Shown piece by piece: positions 1 through 34,165 of a DNA stretch of 34,165 bases. Location: positions 1-34,165 of the IMG/VR virus record IMGVR_UViG_3300030207_000478, one strand, 5' to 3'. Position numbers and translations under genes: made by a program. The stretch is from a virus (lineage: Duplodnaviria > Caudoviricetes). Under the pieces are notes generated by a model. That model was not told where the DNA came from. It worked only from the letters and a program-made list of their open reading frames with translations, and searched no databases. How positions within the stretch are numbered: position 1 is the stretch's first letter; every line of letters begins with the position of its first letter.

Positions 1-1
1 A

Positions 2-886
2 GATGATAGCAGAATTATAGGCATTGCAACAGATATTGAAAAGCAGTTAAAAAGAGATTTTTGCGACAATGCACAGCTATTTTTTGAAGATGATTTAAGC
101 GGCTTTTATAGTCAAGAAAATAAAGATTATATATATACAAATAATGGCTCTTGCATGAATAAAAAGCCCGCAACATATTTTGAGATATACGAAAAGTTTA
201 TAAATACAAAGGCTCAAATAGTAGGATTAAAAGTTGGGAGGCGGGTAGTTGCTCGGGCTATTCTTTGGACAAAGACAATTAAAGAAACACATTCAGGGCT
301 AGGGGTAGAGATTGAAAGCATTAAAGACAAAAAATATTATCTTGACAGAATATATATTTGCAAAGAATTTGAGAACAGCATACAAGCAGAACTTCAGAGC
401 AAACTATATAATCAAATTAAAAGAGCTTTGCGGCTTGACTTATTAAATTGTTATAGTATATCACACATAAAAAATCTTTATAAAGATATAGAGAAAGCAA
501 AAACAAATGGTAGACAATATCCAGATTTTGCGATTCAGATCAGCCAAGACAATTTTTTTAATCTTACCCACTACCCTTATATGGATTCATTCAGATGGGG
601 CGAAGAAACAAGCAATAATATAATTTTTGACATGGATGAAGATAAAATAGATTATATTTTAGAAGATACAAGCGGAGATTATACAGAAGGCGGTGGCGGT
701 GTTTGTGAGTGTTGCGGTGAGAGATTCCACGAAGATGACTTGTATTGGTCAGAAGCAGAGGGCGAACAAATTTGTGCTGATTGCGGCGTATATGTAGAAG
801 AAAGAGATGACACAATAAGGGAAGAGTACACCATTTACAATGAGTATACGCAAAATTATCATTATAAATATGATTTAAACTATTAA
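2..886 (+). CDS. 5'-truncated conserved phage protein (GSCM / ARAILW / YLDRIY / YPYMDSF motifs) with C-terminal Zn ribbon
   Basis: The frame is open from base 2, so the track's start at 155 is the M of GSCM and internal. C-terminal CECC...CADC. Function unknown. Confidence 0.75.
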   Translation, partial: DDSRIIGIATDIEKQLKRDFCDNAQLFFEDDLSGFYSQENKDYIYTNNGSCMNKKPATYFEIYEKFINTKAQIVGLKVGRRVVARAILWTKTIKETHSGLGVEIESIKDKKYYLDRIYICKEFENSIQAELQSKLYNQIKRALRLDLLNCYSISHIKNLYKDIEKAKTNGRQYPDFAIQISQDNFFNLTHYPYMDSFRWGEETSNNIIFDMDEDKIDYILEDTSGDYTEGGGGVCECCGERFHEDDLYWSEAEGEQICADCGVYVEERDDTIREEYTIYNEYTQNYHYKYDLNY

Positions 887-911
887 CCTATTATTAACTA
901 AATTTATGCTT

Positions 912-1014
912 ATGACACACAAAAAAATTAACCCCTAACAATTTTAATAAGATTCCTTTTAATGATTATACAATAGCATTAATTGGTTTGTTATTCTTGA
1001 TTTTAGGATGTTAA
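912..1014 (+). pseudogene. small membrane-peptide gene interrupted by a 1-nt frameshift in an A7 run (or a sequencing error)
   Basis: Removing one A from 921-927 gives MTHKKLTPNNFNKIPFNDYTIALIGLLFLILGC*. Leader and start resemble those of the 29918 gene. Confidence 0.4.
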
Positions 1015-7271: not shown

Positions 7272-9167
7272 ATGAGTCAAGCAGCAAGAGGGTCAGTAGC
7301 ATGGGGGCAAATTCCATTATGGTTTAGTACAGGAGGTCAAAGTACAAATATGTATACCCAACAAAAGGGTGCTTCTGCAAATTATATAGTATCGGCAAAT
7401 ATGCCTATGATTTATCAAGCAGTTTGGACTGCAACAAGTCCCGACTCTAACGAAACATATATCCCGCAACAAGCGGGAGATGTTGTAAACGCTATTTTTA
7501 AAGTGTATGCTACCACAGATTATCCTCCACCCGCAAGTACCACTGATTATGATTTAATAGGTACTATTAAAAAGTCAAGAGACCTTCCTAATGTAAATTA
7601 TTACGACTCTAATGTCCCTAACAGTCAAAGGTTTACAGTTAATATTCAAAAAATAGTAGCAGACCAACTCTCATACAATTTATGCCCTATAGGAGCGGGT
7701 TCTACTAATTCTCTTACATTTGGTGGTATGAATGGAGGGGCAAGAGTTCAAGATAATATTACAGAAATGGTAAGCCCTTACAATTTAAGCCGTAACGGGC
7801 AATTTAGAAGGATAGTGGTTCGTGTAGATTTTGAGGTTTTAGACTCCAATCTGCAAATAGTTACATCAACTACATCTCTTGCTACCGCTCCTACAGTTCA
7901 CGCTTTAAATGCTACTGTAGATTTTAGACAGTCAAACTACTTTTACTCAAATTTTTTATTAAATGAATGGTCTGTTACTGAATCAAAAAAATCAAGAGCT
8001 TTAACTCGCTGCCCTAATGTAACTACATATGATTCTGGGACTCCTGTATATAAAAAGCCTATGCGTTTAGACTCTCAAGGAGAGTTTTTGTCTTTTTATG
8101 TGAGAAGCACTTTTAATGGTAGTTTTAATGAAGATGTTTCTAATGTTTATGAAGTGTATGGGAAGGCTTTTTATACTGACGGAACAGATGAAGATTTTGT
8201 TTTAGGCTCTACTTGGTCTTATCCTGTAAACAACGACCCTACAAATATAGGAGAGAGAATACAATCAGATTTATCAAACACATTTGTATATAATTCTGCT
8301 ACAGATATAAATGGAGAAACATATACAGGGACAAGTGATACTCAATTCGCTCAATATCAAAACAACCCTGCTATTCAAAATGTTGGAGCCGCTTATATTG
8401 ACGACCATGCCTATCCTCCTCAAAACGCTACTTATCCATACACAGGAACTCAATTCTCTCCTATAAACCACGCTACAAAAACTTGTACACATTATTATGT
8501 TTATGTAAGAAGCGTTTGGTTTCATAACACAGGGAGTGCCCCTACAAACACTTGGGTACAAAATAGAAAGTCTAGTGTTTATTGGTATTTTATAGATGAT
8601 GAGCAAGAGCCTAAAGCTTTCCCTTTTGTTAAGTTTTATTGGCTAAACAGCGTTGGAGGAATAGACACTTATACAGCAAAAAGAAATACTTTGGAGTCTG
8701 TTTCTGTTCAAAGAACTTTATCAAGAAGCCAACAAGCAAATAAAAGATATAATCAAAGTAATAATTCTGACGCTTTTACAATTAAAGACTATATCAGTCA
8801 AACGACTAGAGGTTATGACACTTATAAAGGTGGGTTAGAGGTTACTTCTGTTGATGTTCAAGAAAACAACTCGGTATATACAGAGCCTATGAACAAGAAT
8901 GTTTCTAAATGGCTTTCTGAGTTAATAACATCTCCAAATGTTTGGGTAGAGGATTCGGCAGAAGATAGTACGGTAATGCCTGAATATAAGGATACATTCG
9001 CTTATACTACTAATTTATTTAATGACACTATGAGGCCTGTAGGCAAGATTTATAAGCCCGTTGTAATAACTAATTCAGAGGTAGTAACAGTAGACGAAGA
9101 ACAAGGGTTGGTTTCATTTAATATACAATACACTCCTTCTTATAAAACAACTACCCAAAGAAACTAA
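7272..9167 (+). CDS. tail structural protein (distal tail-like)
   Basis: FYWLNSVGGIDTY and WLSELITSPNVW motifs typical of Bacteroidota siphophage tail genes. Confidence 0.7.
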   Translation: MSQAARGSVAWGQIPLWFSTGGQSTNMYTQQKGASANYIVSANMPMIYQAVWTATSPDSNETYIPQQAGDVVNAIFKVYATTDYPPPASTTDYDLIGTIKKSRDLPNVNYYDSNVPNSQRFTVNIQKIVADQLSYNLCPIGAGSTNSLTFGGMNGGARVQDNITEMVSPYNLSRNGQFRRIVVRVDFEVLDSNLQIVTSTTSLATAPTVHALNATVDFRQSNYFYSNFLLNEWSVTESKKSRALTRCPNVTTYDSGTPVYKKPMRLDSQGEFLSFYVRSTFNGSFNEDVSNVYEVYGKAFYTDGTDEDFVLGSTWSYPVNNDPTNIGERIQSDLSNTFVYNSATDINGETYTGTSDTQFAQYQNNPAIQNVGAAYIDDHAYPPQNATYPYTGTQFSPINHATKTCTHYYVYVRSVWFHNTGSAPTNTWVQNRKSSVYWYFIDDEQEPKAFPFVKFYWLNSVGGIDTYTAKRNTLESVSVQRTLSRSQQANKRYNQSNNSDAFTIKDYISQTTRGYDTYKGGLEVTSVDVQENNSVYTEPMNKNVSKWLSELITSPNVWVEDSAEDSTVMPEYKDTFAYTTNLFNDTMRPVGKIYKPVVITNSEVVTVDEEQGLVSFNIQYTPSYKTTTQRN

Positions 9168-9169
9168 CT

Positions 9170-12100
9170 ATGATTACGATAAAATTAGTAGATTATAAAT
9201 ATAGGAAAAATAGCACAGGATATGCAGAAAACCTTATTAATATGCAGAATGTTCAACAGCTCGCTCCTTTTGGAGGAGATGCAACAATAGTAGACAAGCA
9301 AACCCTTAAATTTAATACTGCGGCAGCTACTTCAACTGTTTATCCTATTTCGGGGCCACTATCTATAGGTCATCAGTACGAGCTTAAGGTTCAAATTTCT
9401 GATTATTCAGGTTCAGGAACTATAGGGTTCTCTACTTCTTTGCAAGACGGAACAGTTGATTTGCCCTCAAACGCTAGGGGTAGTGCTAATGGAACATTTA
9501 CAGGAAGTGCTTTTACAGCTAGTTCAAACTCAGGTGTTAGAGCTTTTGCACATGCTACAGCATCAGGCACAGCGACTTTTTGGTTGGTACAAAGACAAGC
9601 CATAGAAAGATATAGAAGTTATATAGGAGATTTAGATGTAGGAAAATCAGAAGATTTCCCTTTATCTTTAAACTTTTCTATAGCAGATGTAAGAAATTTA
9701 GACTCAAGAACAGGAACATATAGTAAGACATTTAACATTCCCGCTACAAAAAACAATAATAGAATTCTTAAAGGAATTTATCAAGATGGTGTTGTGGTGG
9801 GTCGTTATAATGCAGGAGAGGCATCTTTACAGAACCCTATAACTGCAAAAAAAGATTGCGTTATAAATATAGATGATTTATATTCTATATCAGGAAAGCT
9901 AGAAATTACAGCAGTAGGAAATACTGATACTCCCCAATATTATTCTTGCGTTTTTTATGGCAATAATTCTGATTGGGCTTTTTCTTTAGAAAACAGGCTT
10001 TTAAAAGATTTAGCTGTTGCAGATAGTATAGACCCATCAACGGGAGAGATAGTTCAAGGAGCAGCAGGAAGTGGTTGGGATAATCTAAATGGAAAGGGGG
10101 CTAATACAGGAAAAGGTTTACCCTTAACTTACGCTGCTATTATAGATTCTTTTGAAGTTGATGATGCTCAAAACAAAACACCTTACAATCAAGCCACAGT
10201 TACTAATACCCTTCCCGTTGTATATCCTAATGTGGGATACGGAGAAAGAAACGAAAGCGGAACTTGTGCTACGCAACAATTATTAAAAAATGCAGACGAG
10301 GCCAATGGATGGGGAGCAGCATATACAGGTTGTTTTGGTTTTAACAATAGCGGAAATTCATATGGAAATCCAACGCCAACTGTAGATTGGAGGCCGGGAA
10401 TATTTATATATGATATTATACATCAAATATTTAAACAATTAGGATATAAGCTTTCATCTACTTTTATTGAGACAGCTATGTTTAAAAAGTTTATTATGAT
10501 TTTGCCTAACTTTACCTATAACAACTCAGAGGATAGATTAGCTGAGTATAGTATAGGTGGGGGATTTGATGCAGGGGGAACCGCTCTAACTCCGGGTAAA
10601 ATAATAGATGTTTCTAATACATACTCTAATTACACTCAAAATCAAGCTGCTTGGCCTGCTTGGACTGTAAAATGGGATAACGAGGGTAATTATGTTCCTC
10701 GTAACTATTACGATAATTCGGGTTGGAGTAGCGGAATATATACAATTCCAGAAGCAGGTTTTTATGATATTAACACCACAAACATAGGGGTAAACATAAA
10801 TGAAATCTGTTATGCAGGGGCTGCCGGTCAATCAATGAAAGTTCACTATGTGCAATTACTTTTTGAGGTAAGAACAGTTGGTAATCCCTCACATTACAAA
10901 ACCCTTGCTAGCGTAGAGGGAGCTATCCCGTCAAACACAGCATTAACTTGCCCTAACGCTATTAGCAACCCCTCTGACTACATGGGAACCTTTGAAGATA
11001 TAGAGGTTGAACAAAGGTATTTTAACAAAGGAGATAAAATAAGGTTTCGTATAAAGGCTAAGATTTCCCATACCAATTCGGGAACTCAAGATATTGGAAT
11101 AAGCATGACAGTTTGGGGTGGAAACCCACAAGCTTATACTGTTTCTAGTGCTAGTTCAGACGCTACAGGGTCTGTAGACATTAGGTTTTCTGCTGAAGAA
11201 GCGGCTTGGCAGCAAGAATACGACCTTAAGCATGTTATAGACAATGAACAAACACAGTTAGGTTTTTTAAAGGGAGTTATTCAAGCTTTTAATCTTTATG
11301 CTGATACAGATGTAGACTCAAAAATAGTTACTTTAGAGCCTTTTTATTATGCAGGAGACGACAGGGCAGATGCAGGTATAACAGATTTTTTTGAAAATCA
11401 AAACACAGCTTTAGATTGGACATCAAAGGTTGATTATACAAAAAACATAGAAGATAAATTTTTAGAAACTACTTTAACAAACGAGCTTATCTTTAAATTT
11501 AAAGAAGATAGCAATAACAAAAAAGTTGCCGATAGAGGAAGAAGATATTGGGATGGTATTCCTGATGAGTACCCTCACAAAGAAATTGTTGGTGGAGATG
11601 CTAAAAAAGGTGTTACTAATTTTGAAAACCCTTTCTTTTCTAGCACATACAATAGTCATGATGGAATGATTGGTGGAAGTGCGGTTTGTTCTGCAGGTGC
11701 TTGTGCGTGGGTTCCAACCTCAGCGGTTCTATGGGGAGAATGCGATACATCTCCTCCTACTTTACCAACAAGTTGCAGCGGATGTAGGCCTCCAAAAGGA
11801 AATAATTTTCAACCTTCTCTTTTAAATTATGTAAAGGAGGGTTATGAAAGGCGTCCTATGGGTACTGATGTTATGCAATGGAAAACTAGAATACAAACTT
11901 GGGGAACATCAGAAAGGTGGCTTACATCAGGTATTCCTGAATTAGACACATCAGGAAATATTGCAACATATTACGCTTCGCTATGCCGAGCTACTTCTTA
12001 TGACGACAGGAGGCCTTATAATAATGCAGGTGCAGGTAATCCTAGTGAAACGCCGCCTGTTTTAGTTTTTGCTTCTCCTAGATTAGGTCAATACAACCAT

Positions 12101-18464: not shown

Positions 18465-18508
18465 TTCCTAAAACTTCGCAAAAGTTAAATATCTAAAATA
18501 TATTTTTG
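18465..18508 (+). promoter_or_regulatory. putative late promoter TTCCTAAAACTTC-N23-TATTTTTG
   Basis: 12/13 box match, perfect -7 element at 18501-18508, upstream of the head operon. Confidence 0.7.
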
Positions 18509-18513
18509 CACTT

Positions 18514-19524
18514 ATGAAGAAAAATTGGTACAACATAAGTGGAAAAGCATCAGATGGTATAGCTGATATTTATATATTTGATGAGATAGGTGCTTACGGA
18601 CTAAACGCACAATCATTTATTGATGAAATTAAGCCTTTTAAAAACGCTGCTCTAAACATACATATTAACTGTGTAGGTGGGGATGTTTTTGATGGAATGG
18701 CTATTTATAATGTAATTAAAAAAAGAACTGCACGAACTACAGTTTATATTGAAGGTATAGCCGCAAGCATGGGTAGTGTTATTGCTTTAGCTGCAGATAC
18801 TGTGGTTATGGCTGAAAACTCTTTATTTATGATTCACAACGCTTGGGGTGGAGCAATGGGAGAGGCTAAAGAAATGAAAAAAACAGCAAAGCTTTTAGAT
18901 AAGATTAGTGGAGAGATTGCTGATATATATGTTAAAAAGACAAACTTACCTTATAGTAAGGTAGAAGAAATGATGGATGAGGAAACTTGGTTAAATGCTG
19001 AAGAAGCATACGAGCTAGGCTTCGTAGATTCTATCTCGGATGCTATAAAAGTAGCAGCCAAATATGATGTTTCTAAGTTTAAAAATATTACAAGCGAGGA
19101 AATATCTAATAAACTAAGTGTTAATTTAAAAAGTAAAAAAATGACTGATGAGTTAAAAGCTTGGTTTAATGGTAAAGTTGAAGATATTATCGCAAGAGTA
19201 AAAAGTGAATCATCTGACAACGAAGCTGTTGAATCAAAAGAAGTTAGCGAAATAACTATAGCAGATGAAGCTGAAATTTTAAACAAGTTCTCAGATTTTG
19301 AAGCTGAAGCTATTAAGCTTAATGGGTCTATTGCTGAATTAGAAGGAGAAAAAGTTACTCTTACTGAAGAAGTAGAAAGACTAAGTGCTTTGTTAAGTAA
19401 AGCAGAAGCAAAAGGGACGGGCATTTCTACAGAAGGCGACCCTGCAGTAGTAAAAAATGAGGTAGAAAATAAAGAAGATGCGTTTTGGAACGGATTAGTA
19501 GCTAAAATGAATCATAATAATTAA
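18514..19524 (+). CDS. ClpP-like prohead protease fused to a scaffold-like coiled coil
   Basis: GGDVFDG, GIAASMGS, FMIHN, ETWLNAEEA.ELGFVD; acidic coiled-coil C-terminus. Confidence 0.92.
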   Translation: MKKNWYNISGKASDGIADIYIFDEIGAYGLNAQSFIDEIKPFKNAALNIHINCVGGDVFDGMAIYNVIKKRTARTTVYIEGIAASMGSVIALAADTVVMAENSLFMIHNAWGGAMGEAKEMKKTAKLLDKISGEIADIYVKKTNLPYSKVEEMMDEETWLNAEEAYELGFVDSISDAIKVAAKYDVSKFKNITSEEISNKLSVNLKSKKMTDELKAWFNGKVEDIIARVKSESSDNEAVESKEVSEITIADEAEILNKFSDFEAEAIKLNGSIAELEGEKVTLTEEVERLSALLSKAEAKGTGISTEGDPAVVKNEVENKEDAFWNGLVAKMNHNN

Positions 19525-22001: not shown

Positions 22002-22046
22002 ATAAGGGGGTGTTAGTTAATAACACTTCCTTATTAATATCTTTTT
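22002..22046 (+). terminator. hairpin / terminator after the tail tube genes
   Basis: ATAAGGGGGTGTTA / TAACACTTCCTTAT stem. Confidence 0.65.
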
Positions 22047-25579: not shown

Positions 25580-25780
25580 ATGAAAAAATTTTTAGAGAAC
25601 TTCTTAATTGGACAAATGTTAAAATCAAAAAAGTTTTGGTATACAGTAATTGGTGTAGTCGTAACATTTTTACACGAAACCTTTGGTTTAGACCCTGTTC
25701 AAACTGAACAAATATTATACTCTGTAATGGCACTTGTTTTAGGTCAGGGTATTGCTGACGCAGCAAAATCAAAGAAATAA
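25580..25780 (+). CDS. holin-like two-TM protein
   Basis: SKKFW...LGQGIAD; two hydrophobic segments; follows the endolysin. Confidence 0.7.
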   Translation: MKKFLENFLIGQMLKSKKFWYTVIGVVVTFLHETFGLDPVQTEQILYSVMALVLGQGIADAAKSKK

Positions 25781-25783
25781 TAA

Positions 25784-25812
25784 TTGTTTTTAAAAATAAT
25801 TTATTACATTTG
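25784..25812 (+). promoter_or_regulatory. Bacteroidota primary-sigma promoter TTG-N18-TACATTTG
   Basis: -7 element at 25805-25812. Confidence 0.6.
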
Positions 25813-25817
25813 TAGTC

Positions 25818-25893
25818 CTTCTTTGTGTGTTTTCAGAGTTGGATAGTTAGTAGTTAAGAGTGGGGAGTTAATAACTTCTCACTCTTTTTTTTT
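25818..25893 (+). ncRNA. candidate trans-acting antisense small RNA (~75 nt)
   Basis: Promoter immediately upstream, terminator at the end, no ATG, blocks complementary to early-gene start regions. Confidence 0.6.
25856..25893 (+). terminator. intrinsic terminator
   Basis: AAGAGTGGGGAGTTA / TAACTTCTCACTCTT followed by a T-run. Confidence 0.85.
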
Positions 25894-25922
25894 ATAAAGT
25901 TCTTATTTTACTAAATTTGAGT

Positions 25923-27008
25923 ATGAAAAAATACGGAAGAAGATTAAGATTGAGTCAAGATGAGGAAAATCTTATATATAAACATAGAGCTAAATCATTA
26001 GAAAATATAAATGACAATACAGCTTTAGACCAACATTTACTAGAGAGAGGTATAGATAAAAAAGAAGTTGTTTCTGTAAAGCATTGGCAGTCTGCTAGTG
26101 GAGAATACAGGTTTTCTATAGTAACTAAAGAAGATTATGGTTTAGATGAAAAACAAATATTTGACAATGTAAATAAATTTATAGAAGGATACTCTCCTGA
26201 GTATAAACCTATCACAAGAAAAAAAGGTAAACATTTATTAGTTATAAATCCATCTGACATACATATAGGTAAATACTCTAATGAACTAGAAACAGGAGAG
26301 CATTATGACTGTGAAACTGCTGTTATGAGGGTTTTAGAGGGGGTTCAGGGTCTTATACAAAAATCTAAAGGGTTTGATGTAGATAAAATTTTATTTTGCA
26401 TTGGTAATGATGTTTTACATATAGATAATGTTTATAACACTACTACAAAAGGAACGCATCAAGATACTGATGGTAAATGGTGGGAGCATTATGAGATTGC
26501 TTTAATGCTATATGTTAAGGTTATAGAAATGCTAAGAGACATAGCCCCTGTTGATGTTTTACACTCTATGAGCAATCACGATTATCAAAGTGGGTTTCAT
26601 TTGGCACATACTTTAAAATCTTGGTTTAGAAAAGCGGAAGATGTTTGTTTTGATATAAGTGTATCTCATAGAAAATATTATCAATATGGTCAGAATCTGA
26701 TAGGATTAGAACATGGAGATGGTGCTAAAATGGATAAATTGCCACTTTTAATGGCACAAGAAAGGCCTAAAATGTGGAGCGAAACTAAATTTAGATATTG
26801 GTATTTACACCATATACATCATAAAGTAAAACACAAATGGCTAGACGCAAAAGATTTTATAGGTGTAACTGTTGAATATATGAGGAGCCCTTCTTCTTCG
26901 GACAGTTGGCACGCAAGAAAAGGTTTTTGTGGAGCTTCAAAAGCTTGCGAAGCTTTTATACACGATAAAGAAAGCGGTCAAGTAGCAAGATTAACACATT
27001 ATTTTTAA
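25923..27008 (+). CDS. calcineurin-like metallophosphoesterase
   Basis: DIHIG, GNDVLH, SNHD, HGD, HIHH motifs; ATG at 25923 (or TTG at 25917). Confidence 0.85.
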   Translation: MKKYGRRLRLSQDEENLIYKHRAKSLENINDNTALDQHLLERGIDKKEVVSVKHWQSASGEYRFSIVTKEDYGLDEKQIFDNVNKFIEGYSPEYKPITRKKGKHLLVINPSDIHIGKYSNELETGEHYDCETAVMRVLEGVQGLIQKSKGFDVDKILFCIGNDVLHIDNVYNTTTKGTHQDTDGKWWEHYEIALMLYVKVIEMLRDIAPVDVLHSMSNHDYQSGFHLAHTLKSWFRKAEDVCFDISVSHRKYYQYGQNLIGLEHGDGAKMDKLPLLMAQERPKMWSETKFRYWYLHHIHHKVKHKWLDAKDFIGVTVEYMRSPSSSDSWHARKGFCGASKACEAFIHDKESGQVARLTHYF

Positions 27009-27114: not shown

Positions 27115-27145
27115 TTTGGTAGTTTAAAAAAATGTTGTATCTTTG
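27115..27145 (+). promoter_or_regulatory. early promoter TTTG-N19-TATCTTTG
   Basis: Canonical Bacteroidota -33/-7; near-duplicate of 29827-29857. Confidence 0.85.
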
Positions 27146-27190
27146 CATAGAATTTTGACTAACTAACTATTAACGAAAACACTAACTATT

Positions 27191-27484
27191 ATGAATTACG
27201 ATAATTGGAAATTAAGCAACCCTACTGATGATGGATACGGATACAACATGGTGTCAAGATGTTGTGGTTCAGAAATTGTAGAATCAGAATACTCTGAATG
27301 TTGTGGCTCTAAACTTGTAGGAAACTCTGATATATGTTCAGATTGTAAAGAACATTGCGGAGATTACTATGTGTGTGGAGAATGCGGATGTGAGTGTGAT
27401 GAGATAGAGGATTATGAGTGGGATGAAATACAAAGAGAAAACCATCTTGAAATGATGGCTGATGCTCGTAGAGATGAGTACTAA
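27191..27484 (+). CDS. Cys-rich acidic Zn-binding protein
   Basis: SRCCGS, SECCGS, CSDCKEHC, CGECGCEC. Confidence 0.8.
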   Translation: MNYDNWKLSNPTDDGYGYNMVSRCCGSEIVESEYSECCGSKLVGNSDICSDCKEHCGDYYVCGECGCECDEIEDYEWDEIQRENHLEMMADARRDEY

Positions 27485-27507
27485 CTATTAACTTAAATAA
27501 TTAAATT

Positions 27508-27798
27508 ATGAAAAAAACACAAACAAGTGATATTCTACAACACTTAAAAGATGGTAGAAGATTAACACAAAAAGAAGCTATAAATCAATATGGTGCATAC
27601 AGGCTGTCAGGAATTATATATTCATTAAGACGACAAGGGTATGATATAGTTTCAATACCAACAGAAGTTCCAACTAGATATAAAAAATCAAATGGAAATG
27701 TAAAAACGACTACTGTTGTAAATTACAAATTAAAAGATAATAAAAAAACAAGCTTTGACTCTAGGCTTAAAAACTTTATAGGGTCTTTATTAAACTAA
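27508..27798 (+). CDS. winged HTH DNA-binding protein
   Basis: ILQHLKDG..LTQKEA...YG.YRLSGIIYSLRRQGYDI. Confidence 0.8.
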   Translation: MKKTQTSDILQHLKDGRRLTQKEAINQYGAYRLSGIIYSLRRQGYDIVSIPTEVPTRYKKSNGNVKTTTVVNYKLKDNKKTSFDSRLKNFIGSLLN

Positions 27799-28540: not shown

Positions 28541-28852
28541 ATGAAAAACGATTATGATAAAGTAAGAAGCTCTAGGAATGAGCTTGAAGCAATCCTTAGA
28601 ATAAGAGGAATATCCAAACAAAGATTTGGAAGAATATTAAATATTAAAGGCTCTACTATAGAGAAATACTTAGACAATCCCTACCACTTAAGATACTATC
28701 AAATGCAGAGACTTGCAAAGTTTTTAAACATAGATGTTAAGGATGTCGTAGATATAATAGAAGTAGATTTAAAAGATGAGCTTATAATAGTAGATGGCGA
28801 AGATAATTTTGTAGCAATAGAATCACTAACAAATCAAACGACAGATGAATAA
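28541..28852 (+). CDS. XRE-family HTH regulator
   Basis: RGISKQRFGRILNIKGSTIEKY...RLAKFLNID; ATG at 28541 preferred. Confidence 0.75.
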   Translation: MKNDYDKVRSSRNELEAILRIRGISKQRFGRILNIKGSTIEKYLDNPYHLRYYQMQRLAKFLNIDVKDVVDIIEVDLKDELIIVDGEDNFVAIESLTNQTTDE

Positions 28853-29300
28853 ATATAAATTAGAATTTACTAGAGAAAGAGATGAAAAAATCAAAGCAAT
28901 AATTTGCGAAAGATATAATTTATCTTGGCCTGTTGTGGAGGGAAGAAGCAGGGTAAGAAAAATTGTAGACGCTAGAAGGTTGTATAGCGGAGTGCTTAGA
29001 GATTTGTTTTGTTTATCATACCAAAAGATAGCTAAGATTCTTAATAAAAACCATGCAACTATAATTCATAATGTTCAGCAACACGAAGTGTTTGTAAAGA
29101 TTTTAAAGTCTTATAGAAAAAACTATGAAGATATTGAAAGAACACTTATGTTAGATGATAATTATTATATTCATGAAGTAAAAGAAGTAGAAAGAAAAAT
29201 GAATGAGCTATCAGAAAGACTTAACGATTTAATAGAAAAGAAAAACAATTATAAATTAAAAATTAAAAACAAAGAAAAATGGCAGATAAAAACTATGTAG
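28845..29300 (+). CDS. DnaA domain IV-like HTH protein with coiled coil
   Basis: RSR.RKIVDARR...LSYQKIAKILNKNHATIIH. Confidence 0.8.
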   Translation: MNKYKLEFTRERDEKIKAIICERYNLSWPVVEGRSRVRKIVDARRLYSGVLRDLFCLSYQKIAKILNKNHATIIHNVQQHEVFVKILKSYRKNYEDIERTLMLDDNYYIHEVKEVERKMNELSERLNDLIEKKNNYKLKIKNKEKWQIKTM

Positions 29301-29826: not shown

Positions 29827-29857
29827 TTTGTAGTTTAAAATATTCTTCGTATCTTTG
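29827..29857 (+). promoter_or_regulatory. early promoter TTTG-N19-TATCTTTG
   Basis: Canonical Bacteroidota -33/-7. Confidence 0.85.
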
Positions 29858-29867
29858 TATAGAAATT

Positions 29868-29885
29868 AAGGGTTAGCTAACCCTT
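29868..29885. promoter_or_regulatory. perfect 18-bp palindrome (operator or 5' hairpin)
   Basis: AAGGGTTAGCTAACCCTT just downstream of the promoter. Confidence 0.55.
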
Positions 29886-29917
29886 TACTAACTATTTATT
29901 AACTAAAAAACACGCCT

Positions 29918-31003
29918 ATGACACACAAAGAATTACTTATTGATTTATTATCCGTACAAACCACAAGCGGTAATGAGTTTAATATGATAGCACATATATT
30001 TAACTTTTGCAGACAGAATGTGCCTGAAGCAGATGTAAAAGTAAAAGACAACAACATTTATATAACAAAAGGGGAGTCAGACATATATCCATGTGTTGTG
30101 GCTCACACAGACACAGTTCACGATATACATGACCACTTTAAAGTATTTGATGACGACGGATGCTTATTTGCATTCAACGCAAAGACAGGAACACAGGTAG
30201 GTGTAGGTGGCGACGATAAGGTTGGGATATGGTTGGCATTAGAGATGCTAATGAGGTTTGACAAAATCAAGTGTGCCTTTTTTCATTCAGAGGAGATTGG
30301 TTGTGTAGGTAGTAGAGCTGCAGACATGGATTGGTTTAAAGATGTAGGTTATTGTTTACAGGGAGACAGAAGGGGCAACAAAGACTTTGTAAACAATATA
30401 TCCGGTAAACTATTTAGCAAGAGGTTTAGCAAGGCTATTGCACCTATACTTGCCCATCATGGTTATTCAGAAACAACAGGTGCTATTACAGATGTAGGTC
30501 AGTTAGCAGAGAATGGTATTGGTGTATGTGTAGCAAATATGAGTTGTGGTTATTATGCCCCTCATTCTGACCAAGAAATTGTAGAGTTTGACCACGCTGA
30601 TAACTGCAGAATGATGATGGAGAACATTATTACAGAGTTAGGCTGTAATAAGTTTGAGTACTCGTTTTCATGCAGCTACGGAAACTACAACAACAAGTGG
30701 GGCGATTGGAGTGGAGCAGATGAAGATTTTTGGTATGGCAATGATGTTGAGGTTGTAGACGACAATGAAGGTAATGAGTCTTGTTATTACTGTGGTTGTA
30801 AAAACCTACAAGAGAGCTCGTTTAAAGGTTATAAGTTCTGTCCTGATTGTGATAGCGACATACTATCTGCAGATGATTATGAGGAGAAGGCATGGAATAA
30901 TTCTTTTGACGACTATGAAGATATATCAGACAACTATGATGGCTCAATGAAGCATAAAGCTATAGTAAATCAATATTTAACTAACTATAACAAAAACAAA
31001 TAA
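29918..31003 (+). CDS. M20/M28-like zinc peptidase with C-terminal Zn ribbon
   Basis: AHTDTVH, GGDDKVG, EEIG, DRRG, GYY.PH; CYYC...CPDC. Confidence 0.85.
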   Translation: MTHKELLIDLLSVQTTSGNEFNMIAHIFNFCRQNVPEADVKVKDNNIYITKGESDIYPCVVAHTDTVHDIHDHFKVFDDDGCLFAFNAKTGTQVGVGGDDKVGIWLALEMLMRFDKIKCAFFHSEEIGCVGSRAADMDWFKDVGYCLQGDRRGNKDFVNNISGKLFSKRFSKAIAPILAHHGYSETTGAITDVGQLAENGIGVCVANMSCGYYAPHSDQEIVEFDHADNCRMMMENIITELGCNKFEYSFSCSYGNYNNKWGDWSGADEDFWYGNDVEVVDDNEGNESCYYCGCKNLQESSFKGYKFCPDCDSDILSADDYEEKAWNNSFDDYEDISDNYDGSMKHKAIVNQYLTNYNKNK

Positions 31004-33854: not shown

Positions 33855-34051
33855 GTATAAATATATACGAAAGAAAAGATATGCGTGGTGGTGGCTATGC
33901 AAAGCGTAAGTTTACTTATGCAGAAGCAGAAAAAATAAGAGCCGACTACAAATCAGGCAAGTTCACGCAACATGAGTTGGCATCTGTGTATAAGGTAAGC
34001 CAATCTATAATAAATAAAATACTAAGATTTAAAACCTATGTAAAGGTTTAA
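33851..34051 (+). CDS. small HTH DNA-binding protein
   Basis: FTQHELASVYKVSQSIINKIL. Confidence 0.8.
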   Translation: MSINIYERKDMRGGGYAKRKFTYAEAEKIRADYKSGKFTQHELASVYKVSQSIINKILRFKTYVKV

Positions 34052-34091
34052 TAGAAAAGTGTGTTCATAATCACTTGTTTTTGTTAATAAT

Positions 34092-34134
34092 GGGGGTAGC
34101 CAATGACTGTGTGGGTTGTTGGCTATTTTCTTTT
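34092..34134 (+). terminator. intrinsic terminator
   Basis: GTAGCCAATGAC / GTTGTTGGCTAT followed by a T-rich tail. Confidence 0.7.
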
Positions 34135-34165
34135 ACGATAATTTTTTTTTGATGTTGCAAAAACT

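Follow-up and report, generated by a model that had tools for sequence, protein, structure and literature searches.

A conserved phage cassette predicted to encode a small RNA complementary to the phage's own early-gene starts

The phage genome and the locus

The unit described here lies in the gap between a small holin-like gene and a phosphoesterase-like gene of a marine phage, likely of Bacteroidota. By “the window” we mean the whole stretch of DNA that was analysed, a 34,165-base virus record that is 97% complete. All of its called genes are on the + strand. A late block (terminase, tape measure, head protease, portal, and endolysin) is followed by the phosphoesterase-like gene and then by an early block holding HTH, peptidase, and unknown genes; the labels “early” and “late” were assigned from promoters and gene content. 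Three HTH-type proteins are encoded in the early region (27508, 28511, and 28845), and gene 28845-29300 carries a DnaA C-terminal HTH domain (PF08299, E 3e-12). The coordinates of the unit and of the features discussed below are collected in Table 1.

We infer a Bacteroidota host because the promoters are of the TAnnTTTG type, because the terminase and peptidase match phages of this phylum, and because one relative was binned within a Flavobacteriales genome. The best terminase matches are to phages of Croceibacter, Chryseobacterium, and Cellulophaga, at most 43%, and the peptidase matches are to Cellulophaga phages.

Profile searches found no tyrosine integrase (PF00589) in any of five complete relatives, and neither resolvase (PF00239) nor ParA (PF13614) in the window and four relatives. 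Similarly, a PHROG scan of the window returned no integrase, resolvase, or ParA, and none of the 47 window proteins matched an antirepressor.

Two further observations on the genome are recorded here. The phosphoesterase (25912-25925) and head protease (18501-18516) genes have -7 elements only 3 to 5 bases ahead of the ATG, which suggests that their messages are leaderless. In addition, tandem GAAACTGCT repeats, spaced about 18-30 bases apart, lie upstream of the phosphoesterase gene in L012, L019, L022, L026, and L044-L047 and after the last early gene in G006, G007, and G015; they are strand-biased in most genomes (4 vs 1 in the window) and could possibly be protein-binding sites or origin repeats.

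Table 1. Coordinates of the unit, its neighbors, its predicted targets, and the second element in the window
Feature	Positions	Strand	Remarks
66-aa gene upstream	25580..25780	+	Holin-like, judged by position after endolysin; no credible family match
TTG	25784-25786	+	May be a -33 element (candidate)
-7 promoter element TACATTTG	25805..25812	+	Host primary sigma type; fits the Bacteroidota consensus (PMC6847099)
Predicted small RNA, about 75 nt	25817..25893	+	No ORF; start placed by promoter spacing
Weak 5' hairpin	25817..25842	+	Loop UGUGUUUU at 25826-25833 is seed block 1
Single-stranded linker AUAGUUAGUAGUU	25843..25855	+	Seed block 2; complement of the ACUAACUA leader tag
Intrinsic terminator	25856..25893	+	14-pair stem and U run; hairpin 25856-25886
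Phosphoesterase/exonuclease-like gene downstream (phrog_704)	25923..27008	+	Anchor for finding relatives
Early-type leader and start of 8-codon ORF at 912	890..923	+	Third predicted target; rank 3
Early promoter -7 element TATCTTTG	27138..27145	+	
Leader of first early gene (27191-27484)	27156..27182	+	Second predicted target; rank 2 genome-wide
Leader of HTH gene at 27508 (HTH_39)	27479..27493	+	Weaker site; rank 4 to 6, by start used
Early promoter -7 element TATCTTTG	29850..29857	+	Before the peptidase gene
Peptidase leader (gene 29918-31003)	29885..29915	+	Best predicted target; rank 1 genome-wide
12-base complement in peptidase codons 2-5	29921..29932	+	Real; private to the window genome
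Second anti-leader element after last early gene	34051..34135	+	No -7 element seen

Layout of the unit

A reading made from the DNA letters before this analysis, here called the sequence-only reading, had placed a promoter, a terminator, and between them a small RNA at this position. The promoter element is of the Bacteroidota -7 kind and the terminator hairpin is followed by a U run, as claimed. The RNA would begin at 25817-25818, since the last G of a -7 element sits at -5 (PMC6847099), and its predicted 3' end is the U run near 25890. The 5' hairpin begins at that predicted start. Both the loop (predicted unpaired 0.89-1.0) and the linker (0.82-1.0) would be open for pairing. The terminator shares GTTAATAAC, on its loop side, with the terminator at 22002-22034.

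Conservation of the unit

Relatives were sought through the downstream phosphoesterase-like gene, and the best 80 of 339 loci were taken; 79 of these, many near-identical, had enough upstream DNA to be used (L073 had too little and was left out). A match to the unit was found in 68 of the 79, which supports a conserved promoter-to-terminator cassette, and one more (L030) has an altered loop. Eight loci hold unrelated sequence in the same slot with the same order of promoter, hairpin, linker, and terminator; L098 likewise has unrelated sequence in this layout, and in all of these the sequence mirrors the leaders of the phage that carries it. In the remaining two of the 79, L077 and L080, the genes are arranged differently and the unit is absent. 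Among distant cultured relatives, a by-eye reading of the gaps examined in P2559Y found no such unit; phi18:1 was covered by pattern search only.

The loop and linker are conserved across the 48 distinct copies that were aligned. Their -7 element reads TAnnTTTG in 33, TAnnTTTA in 14, and is lacking in one, so that 15 copies are without the canonical G; a TTG occurs 14-24 nt upstream of it in 21 copies. Counted as a -7-like element at the right distance, it is present in 47 of the 48 and also in the lineages whose RNA is unrelated. The terminator covaries, with both sides changing at 8 of its 14 pairs and 99.1% of cells paired. For the inner stem of the 5' hairpin, where the pairs were named by hand, 72.5% of cells are paired and both-side changes occur at all five pairs. 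The 5' part folds better than its own shuffles in 47 of 48 copies (mean z -1.3), and RNAalifold on a MAFFT alignment recovered the terminator only; we regard the 5' hairpin as plausible but weak.

An exact-pattern scan with the window's own letters returned no viral loci, and no host-borne copy was seen in 301 Flavobacteriales genomes. The metagenome search for such copies gave 66 matches, all on contigs under 39 kb, and the anchor gene had two matches in genome bins, both on short contigs.

Predicted targets in the window

Targets were ranked with a home-made seed-and-extend scorer that includes accessibility and uses simplified nearest-neighbour values; it is not IntaRNA. The three best sites in the window are early-type starts whether the RNA is taken to begin at 25816, 25817, or 25818, and the unit lies 1.3 to 4 kb upstream of the main ones. 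Fourth place in the first ranking went to 27482-27493, in the leader of the HTH gene. As the sequence-only reading had it, both main targets belong to the first gene behind a TATCTTTG site (27138 and 29850), and every pairing block that it quoted is an exact complement at the positions given for it. In the peptidase leader, ACUAACUAU is predicted to pair with the linker and AAAACACGC (29907-29915, -11 to -3) with the loop; the duplex predicted at 27156-27182 is near-continuous, with two small bulges. Directly before the peptidase site, at the 5' end of that message, lies a perfect hairpin AAGGGTTAGCTAACCCTT (29868-29885), which is kept in several relatives.

The 12-base match to codons 2-5 of the peptidase gene, which had been put forward as the leading contact, is exact. 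Its register is not conserved, and the contact that is kept falls in the leader, at about -35 to -3. Among 30 other RNA/peptidase pairs, the longest stretch of perfect complementarity measures 4 to 9 bases in codons 1-8 and 7 to 13 in the leader. Conservation applies to the pairing of the loop with AAAAC(A/G)C immediately ahead of the start codon, where the loop helix has 6-14 pairs in 22 of 22 relatives and lies over the AUG in L006, L010, and L090. In the window, the altered loop GUGUGUUUU is likewise matched by the leader AAAACACGC, and the loop of L004 fits AAAACACGCUUA (12 pairs).

Two other readings of the unit were set aside. A loop aimed at a gene starting ATG AAA ACA CTC was rejected on two counts: in the 13 phage records with GAAAACACTC, the only match fell on the reverse strand of the unit itself or belonged to an unrelated record, and one had none; in addition, CAT is not kept in the RNA. 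A minus-strand mini-ORF at the unit was also dropped.

The leader tag ACTAACTA was found in 27 of 233 early leaders vs 3 of 274 late ones in ten genomes. Since only 27 of the 233 carry it, the tag marks a subset of early leaders, chiefly those of first genes of operons. An exception to the early-only pattern, omitted from the sequence-only reading, is a copy of ACTAACTAT at 9163-9171, directly before a late gene (9170). As to the third-ranked site, window 878-938 comprises an early-type leader and then the 8-codon ORF (MTHKKINP), and relatives retain a leader, and often a very short ORF as well, at the corresponding position immediately ahead of the late block.

Tests against chance

The 12-base match by itself is weak evidence, as a complement of this length arises anywhere on the + strand in 1022 of 5000 shuffles and within a start region in 258 of 5000. 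Energy compared with full dinucleotide shuffles is no better. Raw duplex energy without accessibility did not discriminate (best site -31.4 vs a mean of -30.9 for 22 shuffles), and with accessibility 243 of 263 shuffles, which usually lose the hairpin, bind their best site as strongly as the real RNA. Placement gives another answer: three of the top five sites are called early-gene starts, which none of the 263 full shuffles reaches. Of the shuffles that keep the hairpin, 6 of 322 and 9 of 329 attain the top-three energy, and 0 of 322 and 0 of 329 (0/651 in total) have all three top sites in early starts; for this test the start of the 8-codon ORF at 912 had been put on the start list after it was seen. 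Against chance the outcome is mixed, favorable for placement and under the hairpin-keeping nulls and not for energy against full shuffles.

These results bear on the plainest alternative, that the unit is only the terminator of the lysis operon and its complementarity a by-product of AT-rich sequence. The energies against plain shuffles, the commonness of 12-base matches, and one relative in which the pairing fails (G011, below) agree with it. The stretches ahead of three other hairpins in the window, however, place 0 to 2 starts in their top five, the loop and linker are conserved, and the preference for own targets described below is seen at early and not at late starts. Already weakened by the hairpin-keeping shuffles, the own-vs-other matrix, and the scans of relatives, this is the least probable of the readings that we considered.

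Predicted pairing in relatives

Whole genomes were scanned for 8 of the 18 relatives obtained, selected by how complete they are and by RNA type. In seven of the eight the peptidase leader takes first or second rank, and in these seven the shuffles reaching the top-three energy number 1/68, 0/78, 0/77, 1/74, 5/109, 0/137, and 0/194. G011 fails, with one early start in its top five and 68/126 and 29/126 shuffles as good. The ranking in relatives is not clean, because several top-five sites fall in coding sequence: in five genomes just two of the five are called early starts, and most of the others lie within the coding sequence of late or early genes. The top site of G007 (-17.4) is at the start of a gene that follows the last early gene, in a region missing from the window. 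The region of G007 matching window 1-886 holds its strongest predicted target; in the window, ORF 155-886 is open from base 2, and therefore its true start is missing.

An own-vs-other matrix was built from ten RNA types, hand-picked after the sequences had been viewed, and the starts in up to 4.6 kb of early block. At early starts all ten own residuals are negative (45 of 100,000 permutations); other representatives gave 115 and 87 per 100,000, and the six divergent types alone 547. Late-gene starts showed no own preference in nine types (25,164 of 100,000, vs 114 for early starts with the same nine), and mean pairing energy is -9.6 at early vs -5.0 at late starts. Across 23 RNA/peptidase-leader pairs, own preference was reached by 49 of 100,000 permutations for the leader and by 1118 for a coding-region control. 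The permutation values are not corrected for the tree, and kinship inflates them, because the coding-region control shows own preference as well.

Single cases of lineage-matched change are clear in L012, L058, L098, and L004: L012 has CAUAGUCGU in the RNA against ACGAUUAUG in its own leader, and L098 sets a run of seven U against a run of seven A. Complementarity to early-gene starts is kept in relatives, G011 excepted, with changes that follow lineage. In G010, near 25877-25925 (oriented), the ACTA leader tag upstream of one early gene has grown into a tandem array of about twelve copies.

The same conservation might be read at the level of DNA, with ACTAACTA and AAAACAC as sites for a phage HTH protein and the inverted copy at the unit as an operator or as the relic of an inverted duplication, RNA pairing playing no part. 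The early region does encode three HTH-type proteins, and a DNA site would track lineage too. However, the reverse copy sits in a hairpin loop and an open linker within a terminated unit; moreover, leaders read AAAACAC or AAAACGC, and in either case the loop has U facing the variable base, which G-U pairing permits. We hold this reading to be highly improbable.

In the matrix, a phage's own RNA outbinds all others on its targets in just 3 of 10 columns, and cross pairs of equal strength are numerous. This invites the suggestion that the main job of the RNA lies elsewhere, in silencing the early genes of a co-infecting relative or in blocking A-rich host starts. There are precedents for both: c4 underlies the heteroimmunity of P1 and P7 (PMC12197685), and FopS represses host start regions, with one copy seen in a phage (PMC11697453). 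Against it, the pairing tracks the leaders of the phage itself, a search of the Flavobacteriales bin G021, a single incomplete genome, gave no match to the two-block leader pattern, and no resident state is evident, because no integrase, resolvase, or ParA was found. A main role of this kind seems to us decidedly unlikely.

A second element after the early block

A second element, at the end of the early block, has a similar makeup: a hairpin loop against a start codon, a U-rich tract, and a terminator-like hairpin. The five sites ranked highest for it are all starts of early type, at 912, 27508, 27191, 29918, and 31006. None of 237 and none of 177 shuffles reach this early-start count; for energy, 57/237 and 0/177 are as good. 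Tracts like it follow the same gene in six of twelve relatives (G001, G004, G008, G009, G012, and G019), with shorter ones in G002, G006, and G007 and none evident in G003, G005, and G015.

That this element lies in a 3' UTR and has no -7 match raises the question of which transcript carries the pairing. The active species could instead be the late/lysis transcript, acting through its 3' end either intact or after processing, in which case the pairing is the same, the -7 match is of minor weight, and the RNA appears late only, as a true early shut-off. The stop codon of the holin-like gene is 4 bases from the unit, the -7 element abuts that stop codon in many relatives, and one copy of FopS derives from a 3' UTR (PMC11697453). 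On the other hand, the near-universal -7-like element at the right distance, also where the RNA is unrelated, and a hairpin beginning at the predicted start both argue for a dedicated promoter; we consider the 3'-end version unlikely.

Proposed function

We consider it probable, at a level well short of certainty, that the cassette makes a 75-base RNA that pairs in trans with the tag shared by early leaders, blocks ribosome loading, and so damps translation. This proposal builds on layout, conservation, terminator covariation, and lineage-following complementarity, all of which are demonstrated in the sequences themselves. The GUGUUUU loop would first meet AAAAC(A/G)C at about -11 to -3, its invariant U pairing with the A or G of the leader, and the open UAGUUAG linker would then zip onto ACUAACUA at about -35 to -20. 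The resulting duplex would keep ribosomes from loading and lower early-gene translation. Repression is the expected sign because the predicted duplexes cover upstream adenines of the kind that drive initiation in Flavobacterium; in Flavobacterium johnsoniae, initiation depends on adenines at -3, -6, -12, and -13 together with low structure (PMC6847099).

The promoter of the unit and the two early promoters belong to one host-sigma type, and for this reason the RNA may accumulate from the start of infection and act as a delayed brake. Late transcripts ending at the unit's terminator would add to the RNA and might ease the switch from early to late expression. The sequence-only reading had also offered immunity; in the prophage sense this finds no support, as no integrase, resolvase, or ParA is present in the genomes searched. 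Its observations are confirmed, and its interpretation is partly supported.

Comparison with known systems

An Rfam search of the window gave no match to E 1, and the ten weak matches to E 10 on 25700-26000 do not include C4 (RF01695); membership of the C4 or CI families, known trans-acting phage RNAs that had been cited as parallels, is thus not borne out.

The closest likeness in layout is to FopS and GibS of Bacteroides thetaiotaomicron (PMC11697453). These RNAs are about 65-70 nt long, have a canonical sigma-ABfr promoter, and pair in trans at the start of the first gene of several operons to block translation, which for our unit is predicted. GibS has two seeds, and the pair exist in stand-alone and 3' UTR forms. 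The unit likewise joins a promoter of sigma-ABfr type to a terminated unit of 65-75 nt. FopS differs in being host-encoded and multicopy, with seeds at its 5' end and host polysaccharide-use mRNAs as targets, whereas the unit is carried by a phage, presents its seeds through a loop and a linker, and is complementary to early leaders of that same phage. Binding by RbpB and repression in vitro are also among the traits of FopS and GibS. Rfam gave no match of the unit to their family.

Similarly, c4 of P1 and P7 (RF01695) is phage-encoded, 77 nt long, and acts in trans on phage mRNA around the ribosome binding site; its complementary parts likely lie in loops, and its specificity differs between related phages (PMC12197685, PMC2864571). 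Such working, by looped-out blocks pairing near the ribosome binding site, is what we predict for the unit, with lineage-matched blocks. The two do not match in sequence or structure. In temperate phages of Proteobacteria, c4 acts on a single antirepressor message and through it on immunity, whereas in our phage the tag is common to several early leaders and the best sites belong to the peptidase gene and to early genes of unknown function; the searches revealed neither an antirepressor nor an integrase or partition gene.

The CI RNA of P4 also involves two target blocks and the control of early/replication genes. It is cut from the transcript that it controls and acts by premature termination through the adjacent seqA and seqC (PMC4825925), whereas the predicted targets of our unit are distant translation starts beyond the unit's own terminator. 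By analogy, then, the unit would work like FopS and c4 and less like P4 CI, and it is a member of none of these families. The phage small RNAs tabulated in one review come from phages of Proteobacteria, Staphylococcus, and cyanobacteria (PMC12197685). Our literature search, which covered mainly open-access papers, returned none describing this unit.

Conclusions

Judged by sequence comparison, the unit is real, conserved, and lineage-matched; its transcript and the sign of its control are predictions. Gene timing in Bacteroidota phages is poorly known, and this clade offers a small system open to experiment, with a predicted RNA of 75 bases, target leaders that can be named, naturally occurring compensatory variants (L004, L006, L012, L058, and L098), and a tractable reporter host. 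What it adds is an own-vs-other test with a late-gene control and a second element directed at the same starts.

Tentatively, as a generalization that we judge possible and short of likely, non-integrating Bacteroidota phages may run their early-to-late switch by RNA, with a barcode shared by the leaders of early messages and a short anti-barcode RNA, or two of them, adjusted or exchanged from lineage to lineage, that would silence the whole set and possibly the early genes of co-infecting kin. If true, this would be a regulon-wide RNA repressor within a lytic programme, in a phylum that does without Shine-Dalgarno pairing.
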